NCBI GenBank assembly: GCA_965262725.1
Contig: OZ253555.1
Location: forward strand, 2,528,001 to 2,592,000
DNA length: 64,000 nt
Reading direction: 5' to 3'
Source of the DNA: Dehalococcoidia bacterium
GTDB taxonomy: Bacteria > Chloroflexota > Dehalococcoidia > UBA2979
Of the stretch, positions 9,401-43,909 are shown one piece after another. Made by a program: the position numbers and the translations under genes. Positions within the stretch are counted from its first letter, which is position 1, and every line of letters begins with the position of its first letter. Under the pieces are notes generated by a model. The model saw only the letters and a program-made list of their open reading frames with translations, searched no databases and was not told the origin of the DNA.

Positions 9401-9473
9401 TAGTGAGTCGCATCATCGTCGGGTGCAGGCCGTTCCAGAATCCTCGTCCCGACTCCAAGCAAAGTGGGGAAGA

Positions 9474-12990: not shown

Positions 12991-13530
12991 TCAATAGCCG
13001 ATCACGCATAGCGAGAATGGCATCTCTACGCGTGAGTGGGCGTAGAGCGCCTGCGCCACCGACACAGTATTCTCGTAGTCGCGGCTTACCGTGGCCCGTC
13101 CGCCCGACTTGTAGCGATATGCCTGTGGGACCGCCAGAATCAGGTGCTCCATGTCAACCATGACCAGGGCCTGGATCAAGTCTCGGTAGACCGCGTTGCC
13201 CATCCAGGCTCGGCCTGCCTCGATCTCAAGGCCAGCCAGCCACCCTTGGTGCCAAGCATCCACCTCATACTGGAGCTCAGGCTCGGCATTCTCTCCGAAG
13301 AACACTGGCCGCTTTATCTTGTCTCTGGTCCGCTTGCCTGCTTCCACCTCAAATCCAAGATCGATAAGGTCGGGCCGAAGTACCGCAAGTACCCCGTCGC
13401 TTGTCAGGCCCTTCTCGAGATGGGAGGTCCCTATCTCTCGAGCATGTTCCTCAAACAGCGCGACCAGACCCACCAGGAATCCGGGCGGTGTCCGTGTACG
13501 TGGAAACGTTGAGAAGCGAATTGACACCAT
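12991..13530 (-). CDS. Restriction-endonuclease-like PD-(D/E)XK protein
   Basis: YEVDAW...LEIEAGRAWMGNAVYRDL (D...ExE motif as in BglII/BstYI-like folds). Confidence 0.65.
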   Translation of the reverse strand: MVSIRFSTFPRTRTPPGFLVGLVALFEEHAREIGTSHLEKGLTSDGVLAVLRPDLIDLGFEVEAGKRTRDKIKRPVFFGENAEPELQYEVDAWHQGWLAGLEIEAGRAWMGNAVYRDLIQALVMVDMEHLILAVPQAYRYKSGGRATVSRDYENTVSVAQALYAHSRVEMPFSLCVIGY

Positions 13531-14293: not shown

Positions 14294-14704
14294 ATGACGC
14301 TCCCGCTCTGGGGTTCCATGGGAATCGAGTGCGGGATTCGTGCCGGGTTCCGGTGTGAGTACTGTGACCGTGATCTTCTCTCGTCGCTGGACGACTACAA
14401 GGCGTGGGCACAGGATCACATCGTTCCCGAGAGGCTCGGCGGCGCGGACACGATCGAGAAGATGGCTGTGTCTTGTGATCCCTGCAATTCTGCCTACAAG
14501 AAGGCATGGAACCCGCGCTCCGTGGCTGGCGCCACGGCAAGTCGCGCAGAACTGATCGCCGCCACCCGAAGACTCATCGCCGAGAAGCGCGCGGCAGAGC
14601 AGGCAGTGCTCACTGAGGTCCGCGAAGTCACGGGGTGGTCTCTCGCTGGGAGCCTGGAGCCATCACCGTCGCCGACGCCCGGCTCCGCAGCGGCGTCTCC
14701 GTGA
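14294..14704 (+). CDS. HNH endonuclease
   Basis: CEYC...DHIVP..LGG.D....VSCDPCN motif; stop overlaps GTG of next gene (start could be further upstream, 14156). Confidence 0.85.
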   Translation: MTLPLWGSMGIECGIRAGFRCEYCDRDLLSSLDDYKAWAQDHIVPERLGGADTIEKMAVSCDPCNSAYKKAWNPRSVAGATASRAELIAATRRLIAEKRAAEQAVLTEVREVTGWSLAGSLEPSPSPTPGSAAASP

Positions 14705-17700
14705 CTGACGTCCGCGCCGTCGAGCAATCGTTTGGCGCAATCTACGCCGCCCTCAATCGACTCGATGAGCCCGGTGGCTCGGCACTACGGGATCACTACG
14801 CGCTGCAGTCAACCCGCGACGGTGATCGCGAGATTCTCAGTTCGGTAGGTGCCGGCAGTCGCATGAACATGCTCATCGGGGCGAGGGCGCAGTTGAGCCG
14901 GTCGCTTGGCGGAGGCGTGAGCTCGGGTCTCGCAGATCTGGTGGCCCGCGTATCGGCCCTGACCGGCGAGTCGCCAGTCTCTCCTGAAGTGTGCCGCACA
15001 CTCGCGAGCCGCGTCGGTGGCGTGGACGCTGCCGATCTACCGGCGCTGCTGAGCGCCCTTAGCGGTGTGCAGCCTGCGGGGTGGGCGCGGTGGAGCGCGT
15101 ACGACATCTGGAATGAGTCCCTCATCGAGGAGTTCTTCAGCGGGTCGCGAGCGGGGCGCCCCGTCTACCTTGACCTCGAAGCGGATGTCGTCGAGCGTTT
15201 AACGGCCGCTATCGGTGCTCCGGCAGGCGCAGCCGCACCGGACGCTACTCGGGCGTTCAGTAGGTCGGTTGTACGGACCTTCGAGTTTCGACTCGACGGC
15301 CCTCCGATGCTCAGGGAGCATGTTCGAAAGGCTGTGACCTGGGCCGCTTCAGCGCCACGGGGCGATGGCGGCGAGGGCCACCCAGGCATCCGGCCTCCCC
15401 CGTTCATCGCTGCTTTGGGCCTCTTCTCGCTAGCAGCAGAATCGATGCGCTCGGGCGAGGGGATGCGTGCCACCAACTACTACGGGCGGCTCTGCGAGCG
15501 TCTTGAGGTGGGTAGCGACGCCGTAGCGCGCAAGGTTCAGAATGACTTCAGGCGGCACGCCAACAGGCTGTGGGCACATCTGAACGCGTGGTTGCGACGG
15601 GCCCACGGCGCGCGGGGTATTCCGACTGCCGAGGCGTTCGACCACCGTGTCTACGTCAGCATCCCCATCTCGCAGGCGCTCGTACGTGCGGCCGACCGGG
15701 ACCGGCTCTCGGAGTTCTTCTCGGCGTACCAGCTGAACCCCGGACAGCAATTCTCGAGACTCGACATGCGCGAGATTCTCGCTGCGTGGTTACCGGGGTC
15801 GCATCTAAGCGCGTCGTTGAAGTCCCTCTGGCGTTCGAGTCAGGAGGCCCGCCGCCGCATCGCGGACGTCGTGTGCATCGAACTTGAACATTGGGACGGG
15901 ACAGCCCCCCCTGAGCACTCTAGCTCGCAGCGACACTTCGACGCGGTCCTCGCAGCGAGTTACGAGGAGGTCCCCTTCCCGGAGTTCTCCATCGCTCTCG
16001 TAGTGCGCGACGAGGGTGACGTACCGGACGGCCGTTACCGCTTCGACGACGGCTCCGCACTGCCGGGCTTTTCTGGTGCGGTCCACGCCGTACGCGAGTC
16101 CGGCGGCTTGATCAGGCTCCAGCCGGCGACGCCGCAGTCCATGGGTAACGGGCTTCTCAACTCGGTGTTGCGACATCCGCTGGGCCTCGCACACGAATCG
16201 CGACCCGCGACGATCTCACGACCGAGCCGCTCGGTCGTGGTGTTCTTGATGGACGAATCGCGAGGATTGTTCACCGAGTCGGCGCGAGTCGAACTGGGCA
16301 GGGAGCACTTCATACTGGTGAGGAACGGTCTCGCAGCCCAGGTGCGCGGCGCCCTCGGCGAGATCGCACGGCCGGGTTATCGAGCGCTGAGTGGCGTAGC
16401 TGGTGTGCCTGATGGCTGGATGCTGTACATCGGCGTTCACGTCCGGTCACTGCTTACCGGCGCGTCTGAGGCACTCACCACCCTCGTTCCTCTGTCAACC
16501 ACGCAGGTCGACCTGACCGGTGGCATGCAACTCTCCGCTGGCCGCTGGCACTCGTCATCGCCTCCCGATGTGATGGCGGTAGACGCGGCCGGAAGGCGCT
16601 TCGCCGTCAGTCTGTTCGACGAGTCCGGTACGAGCGGCGAGTTCGTAGCAACGCCGCTCGGCACGCACTCCGGTGAAGCGCGGATCTCGCTGCGCGAGCT
16701 CGGGCTTGTTGATGGCAACTACCGGATCGTCCTGAACGAAACAACCCCGTCGGGCGGAATAGGCTCTCATCTCACGTCGCGCGGGCTCAGACTCAGGTCG
16801 GCGGAGTCGGCGCACCTTGATCCGCCCACGGATGTCTGTCTCGCCCACCAGGCAGGACCGTCGCCCGACGGATGGACCGCGCTGTCAGCAACGAGTCTTG
16901 ATGTATCGAGCACGGCTGCGATACGTGGCGCGGCCATCTCGGGTACTGAGGCCGGCCCGCGGCCAGTTCCCCCGGTGCGGCTGCCTGCTCGACTGGGCCG
17001 CAGTGTCTCCGTTAGTGATGTCGGCAGCCTCTCGCGGCTCTTTCCGAGAGCACATCCTGCCGCGATCGAGGCCGAGCTCGAGCAACTCATGCGTCTACAT
17101 CTGGTATCCGTCGACGACGGGAAGCCGCGGCTGACGCCGGCGGGGTACGCCTACGCGAACGAGGGCCTCAAGTCATCAGGCAGGGCGGTCACACGAGCCG
17201 GCACGACTCCACCAGACGAGATCGCCAGTCGCTTCGAGGCGGACCTCGACCTCATTCTCGATGCGCTGGGCGCAACTGGCGGCGGCACGTGGCGATCGCT
17301 GGAGCAGCTCATCAGGTACTCCAGCGTTGAGCGGTGGGAGCCGCTGGAGGCAGCCCGGAACCTCAGCGCGCTTGGCTACATTGATCTCGAGCTTGACCAC
17401 CACTCACAACGACCCCTGCGCTGGTCCGCAGCCCCAGCGACGATGGTCGTTCTGCCCGACGGCCTCAGCGCGTTCATCGCTGGCGCCCGCTCGGAGCCGT
17501 TGCTGCAAAGGGTCGAGGCAGAGGCCCGGCAGCTCGGGGGATCGATGTTTCGCCATGAGAGAGGCGGCCGGCCGGTTCTCGTTCAAGTGCACGGCCTCCA
17601 GGGTCGCGCCTTCGAGACGGTTGCTCAAAGGGCTAGCCTGGCGTGTGTGCGAGACGTGCCGAGACGCATCGCCCAGATGTTGCCGGCGATCCGCGATGTC

Positions 17701-18129
17701 TACAGGGAGCGCCCGGAGTTCTATCCACCTCAAGGCGCTTCCATTGAGCAGTTCGACTTCGGCACGAACACGTGGCGAGACGTCGAGCGAATCGAACTGT
17801 CCGGTGCCTACCGGATCACCGCGGACACGCGTCACTATGCGGCTCTGGCTGACGACGGGCTGCGCGAATGCGGCAACGCGGTGTCGAAGTATGCGGGCGC
17901 TGCGGCGACGGGCCGGAGCATCATGTCGTACAGCGTCGGCGATGAGAGACTGACGTGCCTGCTCGGGGCGCGCCCTCCCGGCCTCTACGAGCGGGTGCTG
18001 GTTCTTTGCACGGGTGAACTGCCTCGATCACTTTCAGACGGGACGTCCGTCTATGAAGGGGTCCCGCCGGGAGTCGCCGCCTGGCTAGCAGCGAGTCTTG
18101 GCCCTCACTCTTGGGAGACAGGGAGTTGA
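14701..18129 (+). CDS. Large Druantia accessory-like protein (DruH-like, or DruF/G-like fusion), 1142 aa
   Basis: Long ORF from GTG 14701, translationally coupled to a DruE-like helicase; NYYGRL...YVSIPISQAL block; assignment rests on size and context. Confidence 0.55.
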   Translation: MTDVRAVEQSFGAIYAALNRLDEPGGSALRDHYALQSTRDGDREILSSVGAGSRMNMLIGARAQLSRSLGGGVSSGLADLVARVSALTGESPVSPEVCRTLASRVGGVDAADLPALLSALSGVQPAGWARWSAYDIWNESLIEEFFSGSRAGRPVYLDLEADVVERLTAAIGAPAGAAAPDATRAFSRSVVRTFEFRLDGPPMLREHVRKAVTWAASAPRGDGGEGHPGIRPPPFIAALGLFSLAAESMRSGEGMRATNYYGRLCERLEVGSDAVARKVQNDFRRHANRLWAHLNAWLRRAHGARGIPTAEAFDHRVYVSIPISQALVRAADRDRLSEFFSAYQLNPGQQFSRLDMREILAAWLPGSHLSASLKSLWRSSQEARRRIADVVCIELEHWDGTAPPEHSSSQRHFDAVLAASYEEVPFPEFSIALVVRDEGDVPDGRYRFDDGSALPGFSGAVHAVRESGGLIRLQPATPQSMGNGLLNSVLRHPLGLAHESRPATISRPSRSVVVFLMDESRGLFTESARVELGREHFILVRNGLAAQVRGALGEIARPGYRALSGVAGVPDGWMLYIGVHVRSLLTGASEALTTLVPLSTTQVDLTGGMQLSAGRWHSSSPPDVMAVDAAGRRFAVSLFDESGTSGEFVATPLGTHSGEARISLRELGLVDGNYRIVLNETTPSGGIGSHLTSRGLRLRSAESAHLDPPTDVCLAHQAGPSPDGWTALSATSLDVSSTAAIRGAAISGTEAGPRPVPPVRLPARLGRSVSVSDVGSLSRLFPRAHPAAIEAELEQLMRLHLVSVDDGKPRLTPAGYAYANEGLKSSGRAVTRAGTTPPDEIASRFEADLDLILDALGATGGGTWRSLEQLIRYSSVERWEPLEAARNLSALGYIDLELDHHSQRPLRWSAAPATMVVLPDGLSAFIAGARSEPLLQRVEAEARQLGGSMFRHERGGRPVLVQVHGLQGRAFETVAQRASLACVRDVPRRIAQMLPAIRDVYRERPEFYPPQGASIEQFDFGTNTWRDVERIELSGAYRITADTRHYAALADDGLRECGNAVSKYAGAAATGRSIMSYSVGDERLTCLLGARPPGLYERVLVLCTGELPRSLSDGTSVYEGVPPGVAAWLAASLGPHSWETGS

Positions 18130-23649: not shown

Positions 23650-23833
23650 GTTGACCGGACCCCTTCGCGAGGCTACCGCTATGAGAGTCCACCCGATTGT
23701 TCCGCCCTCCATTGCTCGGCGTAGGTAGCCGGGGAGAGCCAGCCCACGCTGATGTGCGGCGCGTCGTGCTGTACTCGATCCACCAGTCCTCGATCAGCAC
23801 CTGCGCCTCGAGCAGGCTGTCGAACCGCATTGC
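23650..23833 (-). pseudogene. IS3-family transposase C-terminal remnant
   Basis: FDSLLEAQVLIEDW.IEY..., then GWLSPATYAEQW in another frame, ending near GGGGTCCGGTCA terminal-repeat-like sequence. Confidence 0.65.
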
Positions 23834-24975
23834 GCTGTGAGCCACGCGCGGTAGCCCGCAACTTCGTAGCGGGCATCGGTCAGCAACCGTTCCGTCTCGC
23901 CGATCAATTCTTCATTCAAGTCCGGCTGCTGTTCAAGGGTGGTGTCGACATCTAGACGGCGGGTTGAGCGCTTCACGATGGCCTTCGCGGTTGCGCACTC
24001 ATCTACCGATGCCGGCGCGGCCAGCGAGAACGCGTCTGGCGACGCTGCGATGACCGGATCGAAGCGAAGGGCGAACGAGACCAAGTCCTCCCGGACGGCA
24101 ACGGGATCGATTCGGTACCCATGTGTGCTTGCGAGCTGGACGCGACTGGGACCATAAACCTGCACCAGCGCCGACAGCCACTTGCAAATGGCAGCGGTCA
24201 TGAGAATGAGAAGGTCGGCCTCGCTGCACGTCGCAGGATCAATGGACTCCACATCCGATTCCAGTAGCTCCTCGCACGCTTCGGCGAATCCCTCGCAGTT
24301 GGCGACATTCTCACGAAAAAGACCCATGAGCCGCTGCTCGGCACCTGCGTCAAACATCCCACGTCCTATCCTCGTCGTGATGAGCAGAAGCCATGGGTTG
24401 TGGTTTCGCGCTTGAAAAGCCGTCAGCTGCGCCAGTGCCTCGTAGATCGATCCGCCGCTCTGCGGCGACTCGGATGCAAGCCCGTCGCAGAGGTCAATGT
24501 TGACAACATCGAACGGGCCGAGCTGCTCGGTCCGAGACCACGCGATCGACTTCGGATTGCCGATGCGCCGGAAATCATCGTGAATTACCCTGGACTGCGG
24601 ATCGACATTTGGCAGCCGCCGTACTTCGTCGAGCGAAACGCTCAGTTGGAGGTGCGCGGAGTTGCCGGGCTGCGCTTCCGTGTTGAATCCAAGGAAGCGC
24701 AGTGGGCGGTCGGTCGCTCGGCAAAGCTCCTCGTGCAGGTACCGCAGATCGATCAAGTCTGTACCAGGCAGGCCCAAGTAACGCAGCGGATCCCCCGGTT
24801 CCCGCTTCTCGTAGAGGCGCCGGAGCAAGACTGACAACTGCTCGCGCCGGACGAACTGCTTGCGTGGCCTGTGCCACGACTTGAACTCCTTCGGTTCCGC
24901 CTGCGTAGGCAGATATTCGATACCGCCAAAGATTCCTGCGATTAGATCGTCATGATCGCCCGATTGCTCGGTCAT
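23794..24975 (-). CDS. Conserved hypothetical partner of the MORC ATPase, possible Rossmann/methyltransferase-like fold
   Basis: WHRPRKQFVR, LRYLGLPGTDLIDL, FDVVNIDLCD; ATGA overlap with the MORC gene; last residues come from the IS3 remnant. Confidence 0.7.
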   Translation of the reverse strand: MTEQSGDHDDLIAGIFGGIEYLPTQAEPKEFKSWHRPRKQFVRREQLSVLLRRLYEKREPGDPLRYLGLPGTDLIDLRYLHEELCRATDRPLRFLGFNTEAQPGNSAHLQLSVSLDEVRRLPNVDPQSRVIHDDFRRIGNPKSIAWSRTEQLGPFDVVNIDLCDGLASESPQSGGSIYEALAQLTAFQARNHNPWLLLITTRIGRGMFDAGAEQRLMGLFRENVANCEGFAEACEELLESDVESIDPATCSEADLLILMTAAICKWLSALVQVYGPSRVQLASTHGYRIDPVAVREDLVSFALRFDPVIAASPDAFSLAAPASVDECATAKAIVKRSTRRLDVDTTLEQQPDLNEELIGETERLLTDARYEVAGYRAWLTAQCGSTACSRRRC

Positions 24976-26936
24976 TGATCGGACGTCTCGAGGATCTGAC
25001 GCATCCCGGAGAGGAGCCGTTCCTGCTGCTGGTCGGTCAGGCCCTCAAAAACTCCATACGCGGCGAGGACCTGGACGATCGTGCGCAGCTTACGCTCGGC
25101 TGAATCGCCCCGGCGCGTGCCCCGCCGGTCGAGTTCGCGGAAGACCGGCTCGCGCCTGAACCGATACGCTCCGGGCCTGGCAGGTGTCAGCTCGTCGGCC
25201 TCATCGGCGAAGTCGACCGGCGGCGGTTCCGCGCCTGGATCGTCGGACTCGTCCCGCCATGCTCGGGCTGCGACACTCGACAGAGCCTCCTCTTCCTCGT
25301 CCGCGGCGGCCTCGCGGGTAGCTGTGCGGATTGCAGCCGCGATGCGCTTCTGAACCGTCGCCACGCGCCTGAGCGACGCGTGGAGCCACTGCGTGAGGTA
25401 TACGACGTGTGGATGGGCGTAATTGAACGACTCACGATCGATGTTCAGCGCCGCTTCCAGACCCTCCGAGACAAATATCTCACACGAGATCTGCCTCAGC
25501 CGCGTCTGCTCGGATACCTGATACCGCAGGAACGTCGGGTCGAACAGCGTTCCGCTCGATCCGTGAACCCGGACGAGAACGCCCTGATGCTCGGTAGGAG
25601 CGATCTTCGGCGCCCACATGAGGTATGCCTCGAACTCAAGTGGGCCGCCAGTGAGTTCGGGCGGCACGCCGTCGAATTCCTCTCGGCATCGTCCGACGAC
25701 GAGGATCGGCTTCTTGACTGCGTGGCTCGTCTCAGGGAGATTCCTGAACAAGAGGGGACGAGCGAGCCGCAGGTCGTCGACGAGTACAGTGAAGTCGCTC
25801 CCGACATCGGCTGCAGAGCCGATCGACTTGCTCAGGCGAATTGTCTCGTCGTCGGTGAGTTTGAACTCGGCTGCTGCTTCTCTGATGGACTGCGGCATTT
25901 CGAAGAGACGGAGCTCGTCCTGAAGCAGAAGGTCGAATGGGTTACCCGAGACGTACGGCGCGGGAATAGCCAGACTCAGCTGCCACACCATCCGGAGGTA
26001 GTAGTCAAAGATGCGTTCGAGCTGGGGGTTGGGTGTTCCTCGCTCAACGCGCTGCCATACAGCCTTGACCAGCTTCTCGAAGGCGACCTCTGGTCGATCA
26101 TCGCGAGACCACGGGAGGCTGCTGTAGGCATCGGCGTCATTCTGGAGAACACCGGCGTCATCCGGCCGCACGCGCCCGATGTGGAAGTCAGGCGGCCTGA
26201 GGTCCCGGTTCCTCGCTTCGCTAGGCGCCAAGGCGGGGTCGGAATCGATAACCGCCCACAGGTCACGGCTCTGGAGCCTGTCGCGAGTCTGCGGCCGTAT
26301 GTCAGTGAGGATGATCGTCGTACCGTGCGAGTGGGCGTCGGAAGCTGGCTCGCGCCAGATCGTCACCCGCCCCGCCTCGTACGCCCCTTCTTCGTTCGGC
26401 CTAGGCGCACCCTCGTCCGAGTATTGGCGGAGCACGACCGATGCGATGGTCCGGAAGGGATCACCAGCTGTCGTCGTGATGATCTGGAAGCGGTGGGTCA
26501 GCTGGGCGACTGAGAAGAGGCCGATCCCAATCTTCCCGATGAGTCGGCGCCCCGACGGGCTGAGCGCTAAGTCCGTGGTACTCGCGATTCCAAGCTCGGC
26601 TCCATCGGGTGACCGCTTCGCGCTGCCCCCGATGTGGTGGAGCAGGTGGGCAAGAGCGGCGGGTGTCATACCCATGCCGTCGTCCTCCACCGACAGCGCG
26701 TGGAACCGGGGTCGATCGGTCTTTATGACTACCTGTTTCGCATCTGCGTCGTAGGCGTTCGACACAAGCTCCCGTATCGCCGACCCCGGCTGCCGGTAGA
26801 TGCCGTCAGTGACACGGGCAAGAACCTGCTCGTCTGTCCGGAGAACGGTGCTGACGGGGGATTCGCTGGAGCTGACTGCTATATGGGCAGCGAGGACGGC
26901 GTCCTCCTCGCGTCGTGGATCGTGCGCCGGGGTCAC
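24972..26936 (-). CDS. MORC/GHKL (HATPase_c_3) ATPase
   Basis: IRELVSNAYDA, VEDDGMGM, IGKIGIGLFS, HGTTIIL GHKL motifs; LNIDRESF S5-fold motif; probable GTG start 26936. Confidence 0.9.
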   Translation of the reverse strand: MTPAHDPRREEDAVLAAHIAVSSSESPVSTVLRTDEQVLARVTDGIYRQPGSAIRELVSNAYDADAKQVVIKTDRPRFHALSVEDDGMGMTPAALAHLLHHIGGSAKRSPDGAELGIASTTDLALSPSGRRLIGKIGIGLFSVAQLTHRFQIITTTAGDPFRTIASVVLRQYSDEGAPRPNEEGAYEAGRVTIWREPASDAHSHGTTIILTDIRPQTRDRLQSRDLWAVIDSDPALAPSEARNRDLRPPDFHIGRVRPDDAGVLQNDADAYSSLPWSRDDRPEVAFEKLVKAVWQRVERGTPNPQLERIFDYYLRMVWQLSLAIPAPYVSGNPFDLLLQDELRLFEMPQSIREAAAEFKLTDDETIRLSKSIGSAADVGSDFTVLVDDLRLARPLLFRNLPETSHAVKKPILVVGRCREEFDGVPPELTGGPLEFEAYLMWAPKIAPTEHQGVLVRVHGSSGTLFDPTFLRYQVSEQTRLRQISCEIFVSEGLEAALNIDRESFNYAHPHVVYLTQWLHASLRRVATVQKRIAAAIRTATREAAADEEEEALSSVAARAWRDESDDPGAEPPPVDFADEADELTPARPGAYRFRREPVFRELDRRGTRRGDSAERKLRTIVQVLAAYGVFEGLTDQQQERLLSGMRQILETSDQ

Positions 26937-27582
26937 CGATTCCCCCAGCTGCGCGGATGGAGAGGATCCAGCGCTTGTCGCCGTGGGGGCCGCACGGCCG
27001 CGATCCATGCCGACGAGCATCGAAGGCCCGTCACCCCTCGGGGGTCCGAGTCCGCGTCCAGCAGGGGCGGCGTGAAGTGGAGACCAGCGGCGTTCTCGAC
27101 GATGTGCGAACCCGCCAGCGCTCCGCGCTGGCGGTCGAGGGCGTAGCTCGTTTGAAGAAGGTAAGGGGCCATTTCACCCTGTCACACCCACCCCACTCTA
27201 CAGGGACGATGTGGACAGTAGCTTCGCGAGGAGCGCTGGTTTCCGCCAGATGGCGATGACGTCCGCGCGTTTATGCGAGGTTACACACCGCCCCCCGACG
27301 GGAGGTGATGGTGGAGGCCCTCAACGGGGTCGGGCATTCCGATACACTGCGCTACAGGTCGAGGCCCGACGCGGGGCCAGAATCAGGTTCCGGGCTGAGT
27401 CCGCATCGTTCTCGCGTGGCGGAGTAGCGGCGAGACCTGAACCCGCCCCGGCTCCGAGGGTGGCTGCGCCAGCTCTTAGGTCGAGCAGCCCCCGGAGAAG
27501 AAGGCGCACGGAACCGGCATCGGCGGTGCGGTTGTGCTTACCATGATCCGGGCTGCCTCTCGGTCGGAATGCTGAGGACTGA

Positions 27583-29388
27583 ATGCAAGTCAGATCGCTT
27601 GTCGGCGCTGGACTGATCTCCCGTATCGACGAGTTGCTGGAGGCCCGGTACCGGTCCGCTGATCTGGGGAACATGGAAGATCCTCTGGACGAGACCATGT
27701 ACATCCTGCTGAGCAGGCAGACGCAGGAACCTGTCTACAGGCGGATGTACCAGAACCTCCGGCGCTGCTATCCGAGCTGGAATGACGTGCTTCAGGCTCC
27801 GGAAGAGCACCTGTCCCTTCTACTGCGCCCGGCAGGGCTCCATGAGCAGAGAGCTCGGCAAGTGAAAGCTCTACTTGCGGCAGTGCAAGAGGAGAACCGT
27901 CGGCGGGGTGTCGGGCCGGCCGCAATACCTGCAACCGACCTGACCCTCGACTTTCTCCGGACGCTCGGTGACGAGGAGGCTGAACAGTTCCTGATCCGAC
28001 TGCCGGGCATCGGCCCGAAGAGCGCACGCTGTGTCCTAGCGTATTCGCTCAACCGTCCCGCGTTCGCTGTCGACACGCACGTTCACAGGGTGTTCTCCCG
28101 GCTGGGCCTCGTCACACCGGCCGGAAGGAAGAAGGATCACGACCCATTCCAGGACGCGGTTCCCAAGGGTGCTCGGAAGCGGTTCCACATCAACCTCATC
28201 CACCACGGACGCGCGATCTGCCGTGCCAGAAGGCCGAAGTGTGGGGATTGCGTCCTCGTGTCGTTCTGCCCGGAAGGGCGCAAGACCGTAGCCAACAACG
28301 GGCGTCCCGCCGTGGTTGATCTCTTCGCCGGGGCTGGTGGCCTCGGCTATGGCTTCAGAAAGGCTGGCTTCCGTGTGGCACTTGCTGTCGAGTCAGACCG
28401 GCATGCGGCGCAAACCTATCGCCTGAACAACCCGGGTGTCCCCGTGATAGAGGCCCAGATCGATGCAACCACCTCATCACACCAGCTAGCCCGCTTCATG
28501 CCTGGCGTCGAGCAGGTCATGGGACTCCTCGCGGGTCCGCCGTGCCAGGGATACTCAGCCGCCGGTGCGCGTGACCCCGATGCCGAAGGGAACTTCCTGT
28601 ACCGGCAGGTCGCGAGGCTGGCAGCGGAGCTACGGGCTGAGACCGTCTGCCTCGAGAACGTTCCAGGCGTACGGCGCGTCAGGGGCCACGGCTTCCTTGA
28701 CTCCATCCTACAGAGCCTCCGCGACGCGGGCTTTGCGACCGATGCTCACCTGGTTAATGCCTGCGACTTTGGAGTCCCACAGCACAGGGCACGCTATCTC
28801 TTCCTCGGGCGCCGAGGCGAAGGAACATCCCCTCCTCCTGGACCGGGTGCAACACACCGCTCCCACGGGGAGGCCGCACCGAGCCACCTGCCGGAGGTCC
28901 CCACTCTTCGCGATGCACTCGCCGCCCTGCCCGAACTTCCCGCCGGCACCACTGGAGAGCCCGTAACAGGGCCCGACGGTAGGGAGTACTTCAACGTTGA
29001 GACGATGGCACACTCGGAGCGTGTGGTGGCCAAGATCAGAGGGATCAAGCCTGGTGAGGGCCCCATCTCGTACAGACGCCTCAAGGACGATGAAGCGCGC
29101 ACGTTGATCGCTGGGCACCGCGCCCTTCCCGTCCATCCATGGCTTGACCGGACCATCTCGGTGCGTGAGGCGGCGACCATTCAGGGGTTTCCGCATCACT
29201 ACCGTTTTTCCGGACCCCGTTCAACCCAGCCTCTCCAAGTGGCTAACGCAGTTCCGCCACCGCTTGCGGAGGCTGTCGCCCTCCACCTGATGCGGGTGAC
29301 CAAGGAGGGTCGCGCACCCGCGGACCCTTCCGAGGCCGCAGCCGCTGATGCCAACGGAGCAGGTCCGCGCCAGCCGCCCGAAGCCTGA
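27583..29388 (+). CDS. Fusion: HhH-GPD [4Fe-4S] DNA glycosylase (EndoIII-like) + C5-cytosine DNA methyltransferase
   Basis: N-term LLSRQT, LPGIGPKSARCV, VDTHV, C-x6-C-x2-C-x5-C; C-term DLFAGAGG, GPPCQGYS, ENVPG, QHRARY, REAATIQGFP, QVANAVPP, all in one frame. Confidence 0.92.
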   Translation: MQVRSLVGAGLISRIDELLEARYRSADLGNMEDPLDETMYILLSRQTQEPVYRRMYQNLRRCYPSWNDVLQAPEEHLSLLLRPAGLHEQRARQVKALLAAVQEENRRRGVGPAAIPATDLTLDFLRTLGDEEAEQFLIRLPGIGPKSARCVLAYSLNRPAFAVDTHVHRVFSRLGLVTPAGRKKDHDPFQDAVPKGARKRFHINLIHHGRAICRARRPKCGDCVLVSFCPEGRKTVANNGRPAVVDLFAGAGGLGYGFRKAGFRVALAVESDRHAAQTYRLNNPGVPVIEAQIDATTSSHQLARFMPGVEQVMGLLAGPPCQGYSAAGARDPDAEGNFLYRQVARLAAELRAETVCLENVPGVRRVRGHGFLDSILQSLRDAGFATDAHLVNACDFGVPQHRARYLFLGRRGEGTSPPPGPGATHRSHGEAAPSHLPEVPTLRDALAALPELPAGTTGEPVTGPDGREYFNVETMAHSERVVAKIRGIKPGEGPISYRRLKDDEARTLIAGHRALPVHPWLDRTISVREAATIQGFPHHYRFSGPRSTQPLQVANAVPPPLAEAVALHLMRVTKEGRAPADPSEAAAADANGAGPRQPPEA

Positions 29389-30640
29389 ACTACCCCCGCA
29401 ACACGTAGTGGCTGGGTTGCTGCCTGGACGCACTCCGCCCACGGTCCGAACGGGGGCGGCTGGGCCGCGCTCATACGAAGCGGCCGACCTGCGAGTCAGT
29501 CGCGGCGCGGCACTCGTGTAACGCGGCGAGTGTGGGGAACGGGCCGAGCGCAGGACGCACAGCGACAAGACGCGGAGGTTCGCGATGTCAGCACTCACTA
29601 GTGTCCCGAGTTGCAAATGCTGAAAACAATCGCACCGAGCCTCGCAGGCCTGGTCCGCTCAGTGGAGGCTTGGGTCGCAACTGGAAACGAGCACCGGAGG
29701 CGCTTCATCTCGCACAAACCGCCGACCAGATCCTTGAGTAGGGTCAGGGGCTGGCGCGGTGCGAGCCGTAGGCGGTGGCGCATATTGCCAGGCCGGTTTC
29801 CCGGTGGCGCCCATCTCCACAGCCGTAGCATCGTCCGTCTCCAGCCCCTGCCGCCTCGAACCGGACGTGAGGTTTTCCCTCATCCGGCTCACCGATGCCC
29901 TTCACCGGGCGGCATGCGGGGTGCCCCGCCACGGTCGATATGGCCGTGGTGCCACGACGCGCTGTCCAGCTAGCGAGATGAGCCCCAGACGGTCGGCGAC
30001 GGGAAACGGGTGCCCGCGATGGCGTCGCCGCCAACGCAACCGCTTCCCCAGCCAGAGTTTGAGTCTCCACATGGCAAACCAGTGCAGGACGTCGAACGCC
30101 CTCGCCGAGTTGCCGTAGCGGAAGTAGCTCATCCAGCCGCGGAGGTAGCGATTGACTTCCTCCACGACCTGCCGGGGACTCAGCAGCAGACGCAACCGCG
30201 CCGTGATTTCACGGATGCGGTCCCGCGCCCGCTGCATCGCTCGCCGTGAGGGCCAGCGTGCGAGGAACTGGATATTCTTGTTGCGCTTCGCACGTACCCA
30301 GCGATGCTCGAAGCCGAGGAACTCCAGCCCCTCGCCTCCCTCCCGCAGGTGCACGATGCGCGTCTTCTCCGCCTTGAGCTCCAGTCCGAGCTCACCCAGC
30401 AGGTCACGCAGCAGGGCCAACGCCCGCTCCGCTTCCTCCCGGCTCCGGCAGAGCACCACGAGGTCATCCGCATAGCGCACCAGCACGCCATCACCCTTCG
30501 CCTCCCAGTCCCGGTGGGAATGATGCTCTGAATTGGCCCCACCTGGAGCCGTTTTGATCCTTTGAATTGGCCCCACCCCCGACCCATCCAGGATCTACGC
30601 TCGGGTGACTGCATGACTCCCGGAGCGAGGGAAGAGGAGT

Positions 30641-32275
30641 GTGTCGAGAGTGGAGCTGTTCGAGTCTATCCGACGGATGGCGAGGGAGGAGGAGCTGTCG
30701 ATCCATGAGCTGGGACGCCGGCATGGCGTGCACCGGCGCACGGTGCGGCAGGCTCTTGGGTCGGCGATACCCCCGGAACGCAAGCAGGCGACCCGCGTGG
30801 CCCCGAAGCTCGGGCCGTACGTCTCGGTCATCCGGGGCTGGCTCGTGGACGACCTCAGCGCGCCGCGCAAGCAGCGGCACACGGCCCGGCGCATCTGGGA
30901 GCGCCTCGTCGACGAACACGGGGCGACGGTGGCCGAGCCCACGGTCCGCGCCTGCGTCGCGCGCCTGCGTCGCGAGATCCAGGGCGGGCGCGCGGTTGTG
31001 ACGATCCCGCAGGTCCATCCTCCCGGCGAGGAGGCGGAGGTCGACTTCGGCACGGTGACGGTGTGGCTGGAGGGCGTCGAGACCCGGCTGGCGATGTTCG
31101 TGATGCGGCTCTCGCATTCGGGGCGGGCGGCGCACGTCTGCTTCGTCGGCGAGGGCCAGGAGTCTCTGCTCGAGGGGCACGTGGTCGCCTTCGAGCGGCT
31201 CGGCGGAGTGCCGCGGCGCATCCGCTACGACAATCTGACGGCGGCCGTCACCACCGTGCTGCAGGGACGCGAGCGCCTGCAGACCGAGCGCTTCATCGCG
31301 CTCCGCTCGCATTACGGCTTCGACAGCTTCTTCTGTGAGCCCGGCATCGAGGGCGCGCACGAGAAGGGCGGTGTGGAGGGCGAGGTCGGCCGCTTCCGCC
31401 GGCGGCACTTCGTGCCGGTCCCGAAGGTGGCGACCCTCGGCGAGCTGAACGAACGAGTGCGGGAGGCGGACCGCACCGACGACGCCCGGCACATCGAGAG
31501 CCGCCTCGCCACCGTCGGCGAGATGGGAGAGAACGAGAAGGCCTCGCTGCGTCCGCTTCCGGCGGAGCGCTTCGACCCGTCAATCCCGCTGCGCGCGAAG
31601 GTCGACCGCAAGGCGCGCATCGCCGTGCGTAGCTCCCGCTACTCGGTCCCGGCGGCCTATGCAGGCCGGAAGCTGGACGTGCGGCTGTCCGGGAACAGCC
31701 TGACCGTGTGGGCCGAGGGGCGTGAAGTCGCCCACCACGAGCGCAGCGCCCGCACCGGAGCAGAGGTCCTGCTGCTCGACCACTATCTGGAGGTGCTCGC
31801 GCGCAAGCCCGGGGCGGTCCCGGGCTCGGTGGCGCTCCAGCAGGCGCGTGCGAAGGGACACGTCACAGCCGAGCATCAGCGCTTCTGGGACCGCGCCCGC
31901 CGCAAGCTCGGCGACCGCGCGGGCACGCAGGCGTACATCGAGGTCCTGCTCCTGCATCGCCATCTTCCCTTCACGGCGGTGCACGCCGCGCTCGGGACGG
32001 TCAACAGGATCCAGTCGGTGAACCCCGAACTGGTCGCCATCGAGGCGCGCCGTCTCGCCGACCGCAGGCCACCAGACGCCGCCGTCGAGAGACCGCACCT
32101 GGAGCGCTACGACCGACCTGCCCCGCTCCTCGATGGCTACGATGCGCTGCTCTCGGGTGATTCCCGATGGCCCGGCACGTCGCCGGGCGGGCGCTCCCGC
32201 GCTCCGCGGTCTGCCGAGAACGCGTCGCACACCACCACAACCGCCGTCACCGCTGCGGTGTCGACGGCACGCTGA
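30641..32275 (+). CDS. istA: IS21 transposase IstA
   Basis: HTH, EAEVDFG, RIRYDN, HEKGGVE DDE motifs. Confidence 0.95.
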   Translation: MSRVELFESIRRMAREEELSIHELGRRHGVHRRTVRQALGSAIPPERKQATRVAPKLGPYVSVIRGWLVDDLSAPRKQRHTARRIWERLVDEHGATVAEPTVRACVARLRREIQGGRAVVTIPQVHPPGEEAEVDFGTVTVWLEGVETRLAMFVMRLSHSGRAAHVCFVGEGQESLLEGHVVAFERLGGVPRRIRYDNLTAAVTTVLQGRERLQTERFIALRSHYGFDSFFCEPGIEGAHEKGGVEGEVGRFRRRHFVPVPKVATLGELNERVREADRTDDARHIESRLATVGEMGENEKASLRPLPAERFDPSIPLRAKVDRKARIAVRSSRYSVPAAYAGRKLDVRLSGNSLTVWAEGREVAHHERSARTGAEVLLLDHYLEVLARKPGAVPGSVALQQARAKGHVTAEHQRFWDRARRKLGDRAGTQAYIEVLLLHRHLPFTAVHAALGTVNRIQSVNPELVAIEARRLADRRPPDAAVERPHLERYDRPAPLLDGYDALLSGDSRWPGTSPGGRSRAPRSAENASHTTTTAVTAAVSTAR

Positions 32276-32291
32276 CCACAGGAGGCACCCG

Positions 32292-33074
32292 ATGACAGCA
32301 CCCCTCACCGACCAGGCCGCGGAGCTGACAATCGAGGCGATCTGCCGCGAGCTCCGTCTCCCCACCGTCAGGAAGCAGGCGCTCCCGCTCGCCGAAGCCG
32401 CGGTCCGAGACCGGATCACCCATCTGGGCTATCTCGCCGAAGTGCTGGGAGCCGAACGCGATGACCGTGAGGAGCGGCGCCGTCAGCGCCGTATCGTCGA
32501 GGCGCGGTTCCCGCGTTTCAAGTACCTCGCCGACTTCGACCTCGAGGCGGCGCCGACAGTCGACGCGCCGGCGCTCGCCACGCTGGAGCGCTGCGACTGG
32601 GTCGAAAGGGGCGAGCCCGTCGTCCTGCTCGGTGACAGCGGCACCGGGAAGTCACACCTGCTCATCGGCCTCGGCATGGCCGCCTGCCACCTGGGGCTGC
32701 GCGTGCGGTACATGACCACGGCCGCCCTGGTGAATGAACTGGCCGAAGCGTCGGATGATCGCGCGCTCTCACGCCTCGTCGCCCGCTACGGCCGCCTCGA
32801 CCTGCTCTGCCTGGATGAGTTCGGGTACGTCCACCTCGACCCGCGCGGTGCCGAAATGCTGTTCCAGATCCTGACCGAGCGCGAGGAACGGGCATCGGTC
32901 GCCGTCGCCTCCAACTCCCCGTTCTCCGAGTGGGGCCGCATCTTCACCGACCCTCGTCTCGCCGCGGCCGTCGTTGACCGCCTCACCTACCGTGCCCATA
33001 TCATCGAGACCGGCACCGAGTCCTACCGGCTCCGGGCCTCGACCTCCCCGAGAGGAGGTGCCCCAACGACCTGA
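32292..33074 (+). CDS. istB: IS21 helper ATPase IstB
   Basis: GDSGTGKSH, LCLDEFGY, AVVDRL; GGAGG before ATG 32292. Confidence 0.95.
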   Translation: MTAPLTDQAAELTIEAICRELRLPTVRKQALPLAEAAVRDRITHLGYLAEVLGAERDDREERRRQRRIVEARFPRFKYLADFDLEAAPTVDAPALATLERCDWVERGEPVVLLGDSGTGKSHLLIGLGMAACHLGLRVRYMTTAALVNELAEASDDRALSRLVARYGRLDLLCLDEFGYVHLDPRGAEMLFQILTEREERASVAVASNSPFSEWGRIFTDPRLAAAVVDRLTYRAHIIETGTESYRLRASTSPRGGAPTT

Positions 33075-33329: not shown

Positions 33330-34191
33330 GTAGGGTCAGGGGCTGGCGCGGTGCGAGCCGTAGGCGGTGGCGCATCAGTTCCAAGCCGGTTTCCCGGTGG
33401 TGCCCAACTCCACGGCCATAGCAGCGTCCGTCTCCAGCCCCTGCCACATCGAACCGGACGTGAGGTTCTCCCTCATCCGGCTCACCGATGCCCTTCACCA
33501 GATGGCATGCAGCGCTCCCCACAACGTGGGTCGTGCCTTGGCCAGCCGGTACAGCATGTGCGGAGAGCCTCGAACCCTACCAAGTGGTTGCTAGCCCCGA
33601 GGGGCACTCACCAGTCCACACCCCCAGCAACATGCACGGACAAAGTAGGGGTCCTTCCCATCACCGGCGGTTATGTTGTCCGTCCGGCTCCAGCGGTACT
33701 ACGACCCCCTCCGCCACCCTTCCGGCTGGCTGTCCACTTCCCGGCTCTGACCGGTTATAGGACGCCTCGCTCCGACGCCCTCTCACAGGGTGCCGGGCCG
33801 GGGAGGGCTTCTCCGGTTCCCGTCGCTACCTTCCGTACGTTCCACGTCCCATACGCCGGGAGGTTTCTTGAGGCTGCATTCCAGGATCTTCACCTCGTCC
33901 ATGGCCTTCGCCCTGACCACCCGGGCTCGGCTCCTCCTTGGTCCTGTCAATAGACAGGCGAGTCTCACGGCGCGGCAGACTTCGCGTCATGCTGCGGACC
34001 GCACGTTTGCTCCCCCTCATAGGGCTCTTGACGTCGGGCTTCGACGCAGACCGTTTCCCGTCCACGCCGCCGACCTGCTAACGGGCCTCCTGACAGTTAC
34101 CCGTGCCGGACTCTCACCGGCTGGCAGCAACGAGCATGTCTCCGGACCGGTCACGTCATCACGTCACCACCCCTTCGACTTCCGGACGCAC
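33330..34191 (-). mobile_element. ORF-less group II intron, copy 2 (twintron inside the RT ORF)
   Basis: Same 862 nt as 8486-9347, reversed; removal restores RT codon C|AC (ESIPHDRL). Confidence 0.94.
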
Positions 34192-36190
34192 GCGGTATCG
34201 ACTCGAAACACGAGGCGATGTCCGTCTCCACTACCCACCGCCTGCCCCGCCACGCCTCGTCAATGAGGACCTGCAGGGCGTCATGGGCCGAACGCTTCGG
34301 GCGGAAGCCGAAGCTGCATGGCAGGAAGTCGGCCTCGAAGACCGGCTCCGTCACGAGCTTCAGCGACGCCTGCACGATGCGGTCGCGGACCGAAGGAATC
34401 GAGAGCGGGCGCTCTTCCGACCGACCGGGCTTGGGTATCCAGACCCGGCGGCTCGGCTGCACCCGGTAGCTTCCCTCCTTCAGTTCCGTGGCCAGTTCAT
34501 CCAGCAGGCGCTCCACGCCGTAGCGCTCGACCTCGGCGAGCGTGACGCCGTCGATACCGGCTGCGCCGCGATTGCGACGCACCTGCTCCCACGCGCGCTC
34601 CAGAATGTCTCTGCGATAAACCTTGTCGTAGAGCGCATGAAAGCGTCTATTGGGGTCGGCCTTGGCCGCCCGGTAAAGCGTGCGTTGTAGTGTTCGGACC
34701 TTGTCTTGGATGGAGTTAGCCGCTTGGGCACTCACCGATTCATCCCTACTCCCCACGCGTGAGCAAAGCAGGGGTCCTTCCCATCACCGGCGGTTGTGTT
34801 GTCCGTCCGGCTCAAGCGGTACTACGACCCCCTCCGTCACCCTTCCGGCTAGCTGCCCACTTCCCGGCTTTGACCGGTTATAGGGCACCTCGCTCCGACA
34901 CCATCTCGCAGGGTGCCGGGCCGGGGAGGGCTTCTCCCGTTCCCGTCGCTACCTTCCAAACGTTCCACGCCCCTTACGCCGGGAGGTTCCTTGAGGCTGC
35001 AGCGCAACGCGCATTCAGGATCTTCACCTCGTCCATGGCCTTCGCCCTGAATTGCCGGGCTCGGCTCCTCCACTATCCGTTAACGACGCGGCAGGCTTCG
35101 CTTGATGCTGCGGACCGCTTGGTTGCTCCCCCTGATAGGGCTCTTGACGTCGGGCTTCGACGTGGACCGTTTCCCGTCCGCGCCGCCGACCTGCTAACGG
35201 GCCTCCTGACAGTTACCCGTGCCGGACTCGCACCGGCTGGCAACGACGAGCATGTCTCCAGACCGGTTACGTCATCACGTCACCCGCCCTTCGACTTCGG
35301 GACACACCAACCTCGCCGGCTATCTCAATCGCATTTCCAATTCAGGACACTAGGCACCTGCGGGACTTCAACAGGAAGGAGCGAGTCATCCTCCTCCGCG
35401 AAGCACTCGGCGAAGACACGTTCACGCTCGATACGAGCTTCAGGGAGCGGCTGGGAGCGAAGGTCGGCGTGAATATCCCTGCTGACGCGTTCGTTGCAAT
35501 GGACTACCACCTCGACTGGTTGCAGATGGCCCTGTACTTCGCCGCAACACCTTCGCCACCGTCCCCCATTCCGAACGACGATCTGTTCATGGCCAATCCG
35601 GAGGACACCGATCTACTCATCGCGTTCGACGAGGACGAGACGACCCACATCGTGCTGCTCGAGGCGAAGATGGAGACCGGCTGGATCAACGAACAGCTGC
35701 ACTCGAAGGCGCAGCGACTCGATCTGATCTTCGGGGCCGGCCGGCCGGGCGTGAATCTTGCCACCCCCTACTTCGTGTTGGCGTCACCGAAGCAGTCAGA
35801 GCAGATCCTGGTCAGCGGGTGGCCCGCGTGGATGACTCGTCGCGGCGTGCCGCTCTGGATGGCGTTGCCGCGACCGCCGGGGCTTCAGAAGGTGACGCGT
35901 TGCACGGCCGACGGGAAACGATCCAAATCGGGCCTGTCCCTGAAGCTCCGCTCGTAGCCCGAGACGCCGATCCAGCCGATTACCGCCACCCCAGCCCAAG
36001 CGTCAGCCCGCAGCCCCGGTCTTCCAGAGGATTGAACGAAGAAGGTGCCCGCCGAGCAATTGTGTCGGGTGGCCGTGGCGGCACTGACAACGGCGTTGCT
36101 CGTCGACATCGACCCTCAGTCCATGAAGCTGAGACTCATGCGCGGTGCATGCGAAGGTGGGGGGAGGTGGGCGGATCTGCCCGCGAGTCC

Positions 36191-40796: not shown

Positions 40797-41200
40797 TGGC
40801 GCAGACGCCGTGCCTCGTTCGTGGCACGACCCCCAGTCCATGAATCTGAGGCCCCAGTGACACCCCGCATCCGCCTCCCCGAACGATGCCTCGATGCCGG
40901 AGCGCCCCTCCCCCATGCCGAATGTAGCGATCGAGCGCGGAGTCCCGCTCGGCGACTCATCAACCGCTAGACCTGGCGTGCGAGCTACCCGACTCGCACG
41001 ACCTACGCCCTCCTGCGGCCCCTGGTGCGCCACGATGTGACCAGACTAAGATCACGCGCCTAACTCGCTGGCCAGCAATGGCGAGCGCCAAGACCTCCGA
41101 GAGGAAAGGAGCCGGGTTGTGGCCGGACACCGCGGACTGATTGCCGAGCTCAACCGGCAGACTAAGCAGGACGCCAGGCGGCGGGAGCAGAGGCAGCGGC

Positions 41201-42388: not shown

Positions 42389-42395
42389 CTCGGAC

Positions 42396-43790: not shown

Positions 43791-43909
43791 TCGAGTCTCC
43801 GGCGCTAGACGTACGCTGAGGCGCGAGATAGGCGGTAGCGGCCGCCCTTGCGGCTCGGGCCGCTTCTCGCCAAAGGTTGTCGGACTCGGGTGCCAGGAAG
43901 GTTCCGTCC

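Follow-up and report, generated by a model that had tools for sequence, protein, structure and literature searches.

An endonuclease III-like glycosylase fused to a C5 DNA methyltransferase in a Dehalococcoidia defence island: a candidate methylase with built-in T:G repair

What is a DNA methylase doing with a base-excising enzyme on its own polypeptide? The question is raised by a 64,000-nucleotide stretch of the genome of a Dehalococcoidia bacterium (contig OZ253555.1, positions 2,528,001 to 2,592,000; hereafter the window), in which one gene joins an endonuclease III (EndoIII)-like DNA glycosylase of the helix-hairpin-helix (HhH) type to a C5 DNA methyltransferase. The coupling of a C5 methylase to T:G repair is textbook knowledge: Vsr and MIG are dedicated to the T:G mismatches that arise from deamination of 5-methylcytosine (5mC), Vsr serving Dcm and MIG serving M.MthTI. 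The Dcm-Vsr pair of E. coli carries out very short patch repair, with a C5 methylase coupled to a T:G-nicking enzyme, and the T:G glycosylase Mig.MthI is encoded beside M.MthTI on plasmid pFV1. The fusion described here is probably a methylase with built-in repair of T:G mismatches from 5mC deamination, that is, an analogue of Vsr and MIG, and, as a variation on the known pairing of methylase and T:G repair, it has an unexpected iron-sulfur component.

Architecture and authenticity of the fusion

The gene is a single ATG-initiated frame of 601 amino acids (Table 1). Pfam HhH-GPD (PF00730) was detected at residues 42-180 (47.9 bits; cut-off, 26.2), EndIII_4Fe-2S at residues 213-229 with a score exactly at its cut-off (20.5 bits for both), and DNA_methylase (PF00145) at residues 244-568 (169.1 bits; cut-off, 22); the NCBIfam model TIGR00675 (dcm) also passed its cut-off (131 versus 100.65). 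The glycosylase half contains LPGIGPKSA with K146, AVDTHV with D164, and four cluster cysteines, and the methylase half contains F248xGxGG253, the P320-C321 nucleophile, E358-N359-V360, Q400xRxR404, and QVANAVPPP (motif X). By family scores and the full set of motifs, the protein is a predicted C5 DNA methyltransferase whose N-terminal half belongs to the HhH-GPD superfamily and has a predicted EndoIII-type [4Fe-4S] cluster; both halves look catalytically intact. The initial annotation had described a complete glycosylase and a complete C5 methyltransferase in one frame of 601 residues, which was confirmed by the open reading frame (ORF), Pfam, and NCBIfam, and every motif that it listed was found in place when the codons were checked. 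The PADLOC models MTase_II (246.9 bits), DruM2 (190.4 bits), and DrmMII (142.6 bits) match the fusion, and the DruM and DrmMII models (329-491 positions) cover only residues 237-576, i.e. the methylase part. The best PDB match of the methylase half is 3G7U, an uncharacterised methylase.

A homologue search yielded 806 proteins at E <= 1e-5 among 8000 candidates scored, and the best 120 clusters were examined. PF00730 and PF00145 occur together in 119 of these (59-100% identity), the single exception (P0092) being a 373-amino-acid methylase-only form. An alignment of 24 members (58-90% identity) shows no variation in K146, D164, the four cysteines, or methylase motifs I, IV, VI, and VIII. For comparison of gene neighbourhoods, 5 fusion loci from genomes and 79 loci from metagenomes were used (the best 80 of 430 relative-encoding stretches, out of 590 pattern stretches, were kept); their ORFs were clustered, and the clusters were named by Pfam and PADLOC. 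All 39 full fusion ORFs of these loci keep the lysine, the aspartate, and the four cysteines, and two additional loci (L016 and L024), outside the 39-ORF table, encode full fusions according to tblastn.

The reading frame was also compared with contigs from public sequencing runs. The best run (X1, share 1.00), which may come from the window's own source sample, matches positions 27146-29627 without a single difference; in an independent study, a contig (X5) runs across the junction (27145-28550) with 0 differences and 0 gaps; and a third study yielded a variant (X6; 94% identity) that aligns over 27492-29385 with 0 gaps and 116 substitutions. These comparisons revealed no indel inside the fusion ORF. 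A fusion produced by sequencing error is excluded by the 119 of 120 clusters, the 39 of 39 ORFs, and the gap-free contigs of other studies, and the suspicion that the gene might be a singleton created by a lost stop codon near position 28290 was not borne out; homologous fusions turned out to be numerous. The predicted EndoIII::C5-methylase combination is thus a real, widespread, and uncharacterised architecture. Source databases label these proteins only as 'DNA (cytosine-5-)-methyltransferase', and we found no description of an EndoIII/HhH-GPD::C5-methylase fusion, or of an iron-sulfur (FeS) remnant in a C5 methylase, in open-access full text (main texts).

Exchange of repair modules on one methylase clade

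Apparently unfused methylases of ~460-520 amino acids, which are 44-55% identical to that of the window, proved to be internally deleted fusions. All 18 of these barrel-less methylases (L045, L048-L051, L053-L057, L059-L063, L065, L067, and L072) keep the N-terminal helix (residues 12-28) and the FeS part (residues 168-232) with all four cysteines, and all 18 lack residues ~35-165, which comprise the HhH barrel and K146. D164 is missing or replaced in 16 of them (the exceptions are L048 and L059), and one barrel-less protein (P0397) even scores for Pfam EndIII_4Fe-2S.

Companion repair genes accompany these deletions. A Vsr gene is present in six of the 18 loci (L045, L048, L053, L055, L059, and L063), and a standalone glycosylase of the fusion's own clade, with lysine, aspartate, and four cysteines, is present in four (L049, L051, L057, and L061). 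The contig ends within two genes downstream in seven loci, and a companion was found in 10 of the 11 assessable ones, L067 alone being assessable and without it. L071 (Vsr) and L087 (glycosylase), in which the methylase N-terminus is cut by the contig end, show the same pattern. In operons of the order methyltransferase, HATPase, PP_RS20740-like, the last gene encodes the standalone glycosylase in L049, L051, L057, L061, and L087 and Vsr (PF03852) in L053, L059, and L071, and the L063 operon consists of methyltransferase, HATPase, and Vsr. P0410 and P0412 are single chains with an N-terminal Vsr followed by the EndoIII FeS remnant and the C5 methylase. Near full fusions, by comparison, no standalone glycosylase was found (0 of 39 loci), and Vsr occurs in three (L002, L018, and L029), each time abutting a second C5 methylase gene, which in L018 is accompanied by a SacI-like endonuclease. 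Two frameshifted fusions (L046 and L080) have Vsr 2 kb away.

In a quick tree of the methylase domain (57 rows with methylase coverage of at least 85%; support from the Shimodaira-Hasegawa-like approximate likelihood ratio test only), full and remnant methylases form one clade (support 97). The remnant state requires three changes on this tree, so that the barrel was lost at least three times: in a large clade (99), in L045 (remnant plus Vsr), which is nested with the full fusions L034 and L041 (99), and in L054/L055/L063/L067 (100). In raw numbers, a companion or a fused Vsr is present in 12 of 13 assessable remnant rows versus 0 of 28 full rows; in this count, a value of 0 was assigned to every locus with short flanks and to the three Vsr genes that belong to second methylases.

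A third kind of module occurs in a sister methylase family (39% identical), which resides in a HATPase/PP_RS20740-like operon in L077, L078, L081, and L082 and carries a glycosylase at the C-terminus. The top NCBIfam model of this domain is mutY, and its best PDB match is MIG (1KEA, 1.5e-32, versus 2e-24 for MutY), and L077 and L078 have a tyrosine at the position of the Nth lysine. This reverse-order architecture, methylase followed by a MIG-like domain, comprises 41 clusters (P0121-P0161), some of whose proteins are named from metagenome-assembled genomes (MAGs) of Planctomycetes and Nitrospiraceae. When the N-terminal domain alone was searched against 1.84 billion representatives, 9186 matches were obtained at E <= 1e-3 and 219 at E <= 1e-30, and a Pfam scan among the best 150 covered 25 long proteins (>355 amino acids) and one short one. 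A C5 methylase domain is present in 23 of the 25 long relatives, the other two having no second known domain; most have the domain order of the window's protein, and five have the reverse order (e.g. P0327, with a Lys-type HhH). In addition, a 746-amino-acid 'dcm' protein of Natronobeatus ordinarius, encoded on plasmid NZ_CP101457.1 (L197:6710-8950), has a degenerate EndoIII-like N-terminal domain without the HhH lysine and with the Cys motif lost; Pfam detects only DNA_methylase in it.

These loci show that predicted Vsr, MIG-like, and EndoIII-like modules are interchangeable on one methylase clade, fused or adjacent. The EndoIII half likely does the T:G job, because Vsr and MIG-like modules replace it on the same scaffold and because deletion of its barrel is accompanied by the gain of a Vsr or glycosylase companion. 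This reading also fits because the window's genome (G000, one 3.67-Mb contig, 91.55% complete by markers) has no vsr: PF03852 has 0 matches in the whole 3.67 Mb, so that the initial remark on the absence of vsr at this locus holds genome-wide. A second C5 methylase of 406 amino acids, without an EndoIII part, is encoded elsewhere in this genome beside another HATPase_c_3 gene (G000:C1:1705842-1706900; L010/L011), and without Vsr, any T:G repair serving it must come from the fusion or from its paralogue L174 (see below).

In the scheme that we propose, the C-terminal methyltransferase would mark host DNA for neighbouring defence modules, namely the pair of HATPase and PP_RS20740-family genes and probably also DruF/DruE in the window, and class-2 DISARM in relatives. 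When 5mC deaminates to thymine and a T:G mismatch results, the N-terminal glycosylase would excise that thymine, and perhaps also uracil from U:G. K146 would then nick the abasic site in a lyase step, a proposal made because this lysine is invariant, leading to Vsr-like short-patch repair in which host apurinic/apyrimidinic endonuclease, polymerase, and ligase would restore C:G. The FeS sub-domain would pack on the methylase and be needed by it.

The arrangement resembles Dcm-Vsr in that a C5 methylase is genetically coupled to a T:G enzyme, and in relatives Vsr is found at the corresponding place in the operon or fusion; however, Vsr is a separate, sequence-specific endonuclease of another fold, whereas here the methylase chain itself carries an HhH-GPD/[4Fe-4S] glycosylase-lyase. 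With Mig.MthI (1KEA) it shares the linkage of an HhH/[4Fe-4S] glycosylase to the C5 methylase of a restriction system, but MIG is Tyr-type and MutY-like, whereas the window's domain is Lys-type, EndoIII-1-like, N-terminal, and fused.

Kinship of the glycosylase half and competing readings

Residues 1-246 were compared with PDB sequences. The closest is Deinococcus radiodurans EndoIII-1 (8a5c/4unf; 2e-30 over residues 9-229), followed by EndoIII-3 (4uob, 9e-23), Geobacillus Nth (1orn, 1e-19), human NTH1 (1e-12), MIG (1KEA, 6.4e-11), MutY (about 1e-7), and ROS1 (7yhq, 2e-7 over residues 120-177 only). The top glycosylase model is NF053634 (DR2438-type monofunctional glycosylase), reached with 114.8 bits, under its cut-off of 400, and the Nth equivalogs are not reached either (TIGR01083, 89.8 versus 211.7; NF007978, 55 versus 405). 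K146 aligns with the catalytic lysine of EndoIII, so that the feature of bifunctional glycosylase/lyases is present, and the MIG-type feature, a tyrosine at the HhH lysine position, is absent. D. radiodurans EndoIII-1 (DR2438; 4UNF/8A5C) and EndoIII-3 (4UOB) have in common with the fusion an extended pre-HhH segment, the lysine, the aspartate, and the FeS loop, but they are standalone repair enzymes with no known methylase linkage.

This ranking bears on the possibility that the glycosylase excises 5mC itself, making the protein a writer and eraser in the manner of DEMETER (DME) and ROS1, which are likewise bifunctional HhH-GPD/[4Fe-4S] enzymes acting in a 5mC context and which also excise T from T:G. 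The lysine and aspartate are as in DME/ROS1, and there is the weak local match to 7yhq; that match, however, is far weaker than those to EndoIII and MIG, weaker too than that to MutY, and confined to the HhH segment, and the additional DME-specific flanking domains are absent by Pfam. Kinship to DME/ROS1, a resemblance pointed out in the initial annotation, was rejected accordingly as generic HhH likeness (2e-7 over residues 120-177 versus 2e-30 over 9-229). Erasure of the self-mark would moreover be futile, and dangerous beside restriction modules, and the equivalence with Vsr does not fit; we regard 5mC excision as highly improbable.

The same ranking lends more weight to repair of lesions other than T:G. 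The domain might have kept a general EndoIII specificity for oxidised pyrimidines, among them the thymine glycol that faces G once 5mC has been oxidised, or might remove uracil from U:G or 3-methylcytosine, a by-product of C5 methylases, being tethered in each case where the damage arises. Its best matches are EndoIII enzymes and not MIG, and the catalytic lysine is typical of bifunctional oxidised-base glycosylases. Five HhH-GPD genes were found in the window's genome, encoding the fusion, L174, and MutY-like, AlkA-like (by eye), and 3-methyladenine-glycosylase-like proteins. L174 (265 amino acids; NF053634, 175 bits) is 41% identical to the fusion's glycosylase, and no canonical Nth was seen besides it among the five; it is the only other FeS EndoIII homologue of the genome, which suggests that the clade derives from a housekeeping-type enzyme. 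Standalone homologues are also common: among 201 genomes sampled from the class of genome G001, 92 have a match at E <= 1e-30, and most of the matches listed are standalone homologues, 35-43% identical over residues ~15-235. Such repair would, however, leave unexplained why T:G-specific Vsr and a MIG-like domain replace the module on the same clade and why, among the 25 long relatives, C5 methylases are the sole fusion partners seen (23 of 25). We consider it unlikely as the principal function.

Whether the domain simply groups with housekeeping Nth, as the initial annotation had considered, proved to be only half informative. The domain shares 35-43% identity with the standalone EndoIII-type enzyme that is common in these phyla, but in a maximum-likelihood tree of 60 glycosylase domains (identical rows removed; MutY and MIG-like domains as outgroup), 31 fused domains and 5 operon-linked standalone glycosylases fall on one side (support 92/57) and 20 ordinary standalone homologues on the other (92/85). 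The defence contexts described below are interleaved inside the fused clade.

Several points weigh against T:G repair as the function of the N-terminal half. With 35-43% identity to ordinary EndoIII, oxidised-pyrimidine specificity could have been kept, and support for the methylase-linked clade in the glycosylase tree is moderate (92/57). The prokaryotic HhH T:G glycosylases known to us (MIG) lack the lysine that is invariant here. Both domains would also have to flip the same nucleotide. The association between barrel loss and companion genes comprises only two (starred branches) to three independent contrasts, all in the same direction (sign test p 0.5); many loci are short or near-identical, and the latter are not independent counts (L005/L013/L020, L034/L035, L036/L091, and L037-L039), and flanks of at least 3 kb on both sides are available for only 15 of the 39 fusion loci. 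As for the closest characterised enzymes, the part of PMC9268735 available to us ascribes to DrEndoIII1 a weak, mostly monofunctional activity and an ability to process single-stranded DNA, and it reports no detectable EndoIII activity for DrEndoIII3; both thus show weak or no action on classical substrates, and no T:G activity is reported in that part.

The lack of a clear classical substrate for these two enzymes (PMC9268735, in part) may also be taken to favour a role as a defence effector or sensor, in which the glycosylase/lyase would attack or sense unmethylated or hypermodified foreign DNA. The protein would then be either a base-excision restriction-modification enzyme in a single chain or a sensor that serves DISARM, Druantia, or the HATPase module. 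In the most far-reaching form of this idea, the methylase would mark the target cytosine, and the lysine-bearing glycosylase/lyase would excise bases or nick DNA at sites that are unmarked or carry foreign modifications, thereby feeding the effectors of DISARM, Druantia, or paraMORC systems. The fusion occurs in defence contexts only, and the haloarchaeal plasmid methylase of N. ordinarius keeps its degenerate copy without the lysine or the Cys motif. Base-excision restriction enzymes exist, as the R.PabI family illustrates (PMC10273834, in the part available). END nucleases, according to the accessible part of PMC12191111, contain an inactive EndoIII domain, related to 4UOB, fused to a nuclease and used as a sensor of hypermodified DNA, and so likewise represent recruitment of a DrEndoIII-type domain into a defence protein. 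END nucleases, however, have lost the catalytic residues and combine the domain with a nuclease and no methylase (PMC12191111), whereas K146 and D164 are invariant here and the partner is a methylase. Further arguments against an attacking role are that Vsr, a repair nickase, substitutes for the barrel, that each context already has separate nuclease or helicase effectors, and that an enzyme nicking unmethylated sites would have to be regulated when its own methylase is in cis, whereas nothing here points to such regulation. The best 80 viral-contig matches are all plain C5 methylases (24-36% identity), and none of the 80 covers the glycosylase part. Of the two alternatives offered in the initial annotation, built-in T:G repair is the one favoured by the interchange of Vsr, MIG-like, and EndoIII-like modules; excision in invading DNA is disfavoured, and we think the effector or sensor role quite improbable.

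A further possibility is that this methylase clade uses the EndoIII part, and especially the FeS sub-domain, as an integral element mainly for structure or DNA binding, with glycosylase chemistry being secondary. All 18 barrel-less relatives, like the Vsr fusions, have the FeS part and the N-terminal helix with all four cysteines, and only 14 residues separate the last cluster cysteine from the methylase. Nevertheless, every ORF with the barrel (39 of 39) has both K146 and D164, and such invariance points to selection on catalysis. As the main role, structure or DNA binding seems to us slightly less probable still than that of effector, but a structural role is compatible with, and not opposed to, T:G repair by the intact fusions. 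Because the sub-domain is repeatedly retained and the linker is so short, these data suggest that the FeS sub-domain is a structural or functional part of the methylase, and the barrel-less forms of ~460-520 amino acids may be iron-sulfur DNA methyltransferases. This would be the first clade of C5 DNA methyltransferases needing a [4Fe-4S] domain, given that the domain has persisted through every loss of the barrel, and we find such a need more likely than a part in restriction.

If T:G repair is indeed the function of the fusion, the methylases of DISARM, Druantia, and paraMORC systems bring their own mutation insurance, which matters in genomes of 65-70% GC with many methylated sites, and Vsr, MIG-like, and EndoIII-like modules have been swapped on one methylase scaffold. 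The enigmatic DrEndoIII1/3-like branch would gain a concrete, testable substrate hypothesis, and the [4Fe-4S] sub-domain kept after barrel deletion would provide a testable case of an iron-sulfur DNA methyltransferase.

Defence contexts, distribution, and neighbouring genes

The window is a defence island. Its genes are arranged in the order type I-U-like cas, SMC-like ATPase, DruF/DruL, DruE, PP_RS20740-family, HATPase, and fusion (divergent), followed by a group II intron reverse transcriptase fragment, IS21, and then Gabija, a type IV restriction enzyme, and PD-Lambda-1 (Table 1).

Table 1. Coordinates of the fusion gene, its functional elements, and selected neighbouring and related genes (window positions unless a locus is named)
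Feature	Position	Strand	Evidence
Whole fusion gene, EndoIII-type glycosylase :: C5 DNA methyltransferase (predicted)	27583..29388	+	ORF; colinear in 39 related loci and other-study contigs
EndoIII-like HhH-GPD/[4Fe-4S] glycosylase domain, residues ~10-232	27610..28278	+	Pfam, NCBIfam, PDB sequence matches
K146 codon, HhH position of Nth catalytic lysine (lyase nucleophile)	28018..28020	+	Alignment; codon checked
D164 codon, catalytic Asp of GPD loop (AVDTHV)	28072..28074	+	Alignment; codon checked
[4Fe-4S] cluster loop C213-x6-C220-x2-C223-x5-C229	28219..28269	+	Pfam EndIII_4Fe-2S
14-residue linker, residues 230-243, last cluster Cys to methylase motif I	28270..28311	+	Sequence; spacing equal in relatives
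C5 DNA methyltransferase domain, residues 244-568, motifs I, IV, VI, VIII, X	28312..29286	+	Pfam, NCBIfam, PADLOC
Methylase motif IV, P320-C321 codons	28540-28545	+	Codon checked
PP_RS20740-family protein, 393 aa, co-operonic with HATPase gene	23794..24975	-	NF047698, 346.9 bits (cut-off 200)
GHKL/HATPase_c_3 (paraMORC-like) protein, 682 aa, divergent neighbour, likely restriction-side partner	24972..27020	-	Pfam HATPase_c_3, 50.3 bits
Druantia DruF with DruL-like C-terminus	14635..18129	+	PADLOC DruF2, 466.9 bits; DruL4, 78.2 bits
Druantia DruE helicase, 1808 aa	18111..23537	+	PADLOC DruE2, 1527 bits
Reverse-order family member (methylase, then MIG-like domain)	L077:344-2005		
Reverse-order family member (methylase, then MIG-like domain)	L078:2727-4580		

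Three contexts were distinguished among the compared loci. In the first (A), the full fusion accompanies HATPase and PP_RS20740-family genes (window, L001-L003, L029, and L043); in the second (B), it lies directly beside Druantia DruF/DruL, DruE, and a DruK-like PD-(D/E)XK gene (L004, L005, L013, L020, L024, L026, and L052; in the window, at 4 kb); and in the third (C), it belongs to DISARM-like clusters with DrmA, DrmB, and a NERD-helicase, some also with DrmE or the PLD protein DrmC (L016, L019, L028, L029, L033-L042, L047, and L091). Two contexts are combined around one methylase in L029 and in the window. The fusion serves as the predicted methylase of all three: HATPase plus PP_RS20740-family, Druantia, and class-2 DISARM. 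In relatives it occupies the operon place and role of DISARM DrmMII or Druantia DruM, in keeping with its PADLOC matches; no description of a glycosylase on DruM or DrmMII was found in the open-access literature. In the window, the HATPase module separates the fusion from DruF/DruE, which end 4 kb upstream of it, and the fusion may double as the DruM of this Druantia system, because no other methylase is found beside DruE. In L036, a gene for an AspBHI-like 5mC-dependent restriction enzyme (RE_AspBHI_N plus Mrr_cat; 8498-9712, +) lies between the DISARM genes and the fusion. In L002, weak MIG/MutY-like tblastn matches (31-33% identity; 12734-13236, -) lie between the fusion and a cluster of Vsr, second methylase, and HATPase genes.

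The HATPase module recalls the neighbourhoods described in the available part of PMC8011034, in which HATPase_c_3/paraMORC-type genes occur with C5 methylases and Vsr genes lie just downstream of a partner gene. Common to both are a GHKL HATPase_c_3 gene, a small partner, a C5 methylase, and a repair gene at the cluster end; here, however, the partner is of the PP_RS20740 family and not detectably Response_reg_2, and a glycosylase, fused or standalone, takes the place of Vsr (PMC8011034, same part). The 682-amino-acid HATPase protein has a weak N-terminal match to the BbrUII/HgiDII restriction endonuclease family (58.1 bits; cut-off, 550). A scan of positions 26900-29950 returned 0 promoter-like sites and 1 terminator-like site, which was not above shuffled sequences.

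The full fusion was found in 2 of 301 sampled genomes of the window's phylum, namely G000 and G220 (56% identity), and only in G001 in the class sample of 201 genomes. The gene is therefore sporadic, like other defence-island genes. A search of genome contigs with the single protein reached five fusion loci in four genomes, all close relatives, and no plasmid record covered at least 80% of the fusion query. One Dehalococcoidia MAG (OZ242017.1) contains two HATPase/PP_RS20740/fusion modules (L002 and L003) at distant sites, 85% identical to that of the window; because two distant copies occur in one MAG, mobility of the module is suggested.

The left end of the island (1161-6633, -) encodes a type I-U-like effector set consisting of Cas3 (HD plus helicase C), a GSU0054-family protein, and a GSU0053-family protein. 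No tRNA gene was found in the window. Downstream of the fusion, a group II intron reverse transcriptase/maturase gene is apparently split (29902-30576, -, and 34154-34783, -) around IS21 istA/istB (30641-33074, +), with RVT_1 146-204 and GIIM in the C-terminal piece and RVT_1 1-88 in the N-terminal piece; between ~29600 and 29900, contig depth increases 10- to 40-fold, as it would for a repeat. Beyond IS21 (37411-43790, +) lie Gabija GajA/GajB, a type IV methyl-directed enzyme (41141-42388), and PD-Lambda-1 (42360-43790). That a methyl-directed enzyme and a C5 methylase are encoded within a few kb of each other implies that their specificities do not overlap. Farther downstream (43832-50107, +), a gene for a DUF6361 protein is followed by two ORFs of 633 and 1066 amino acids without Pfam match, possibly representing another defence system.

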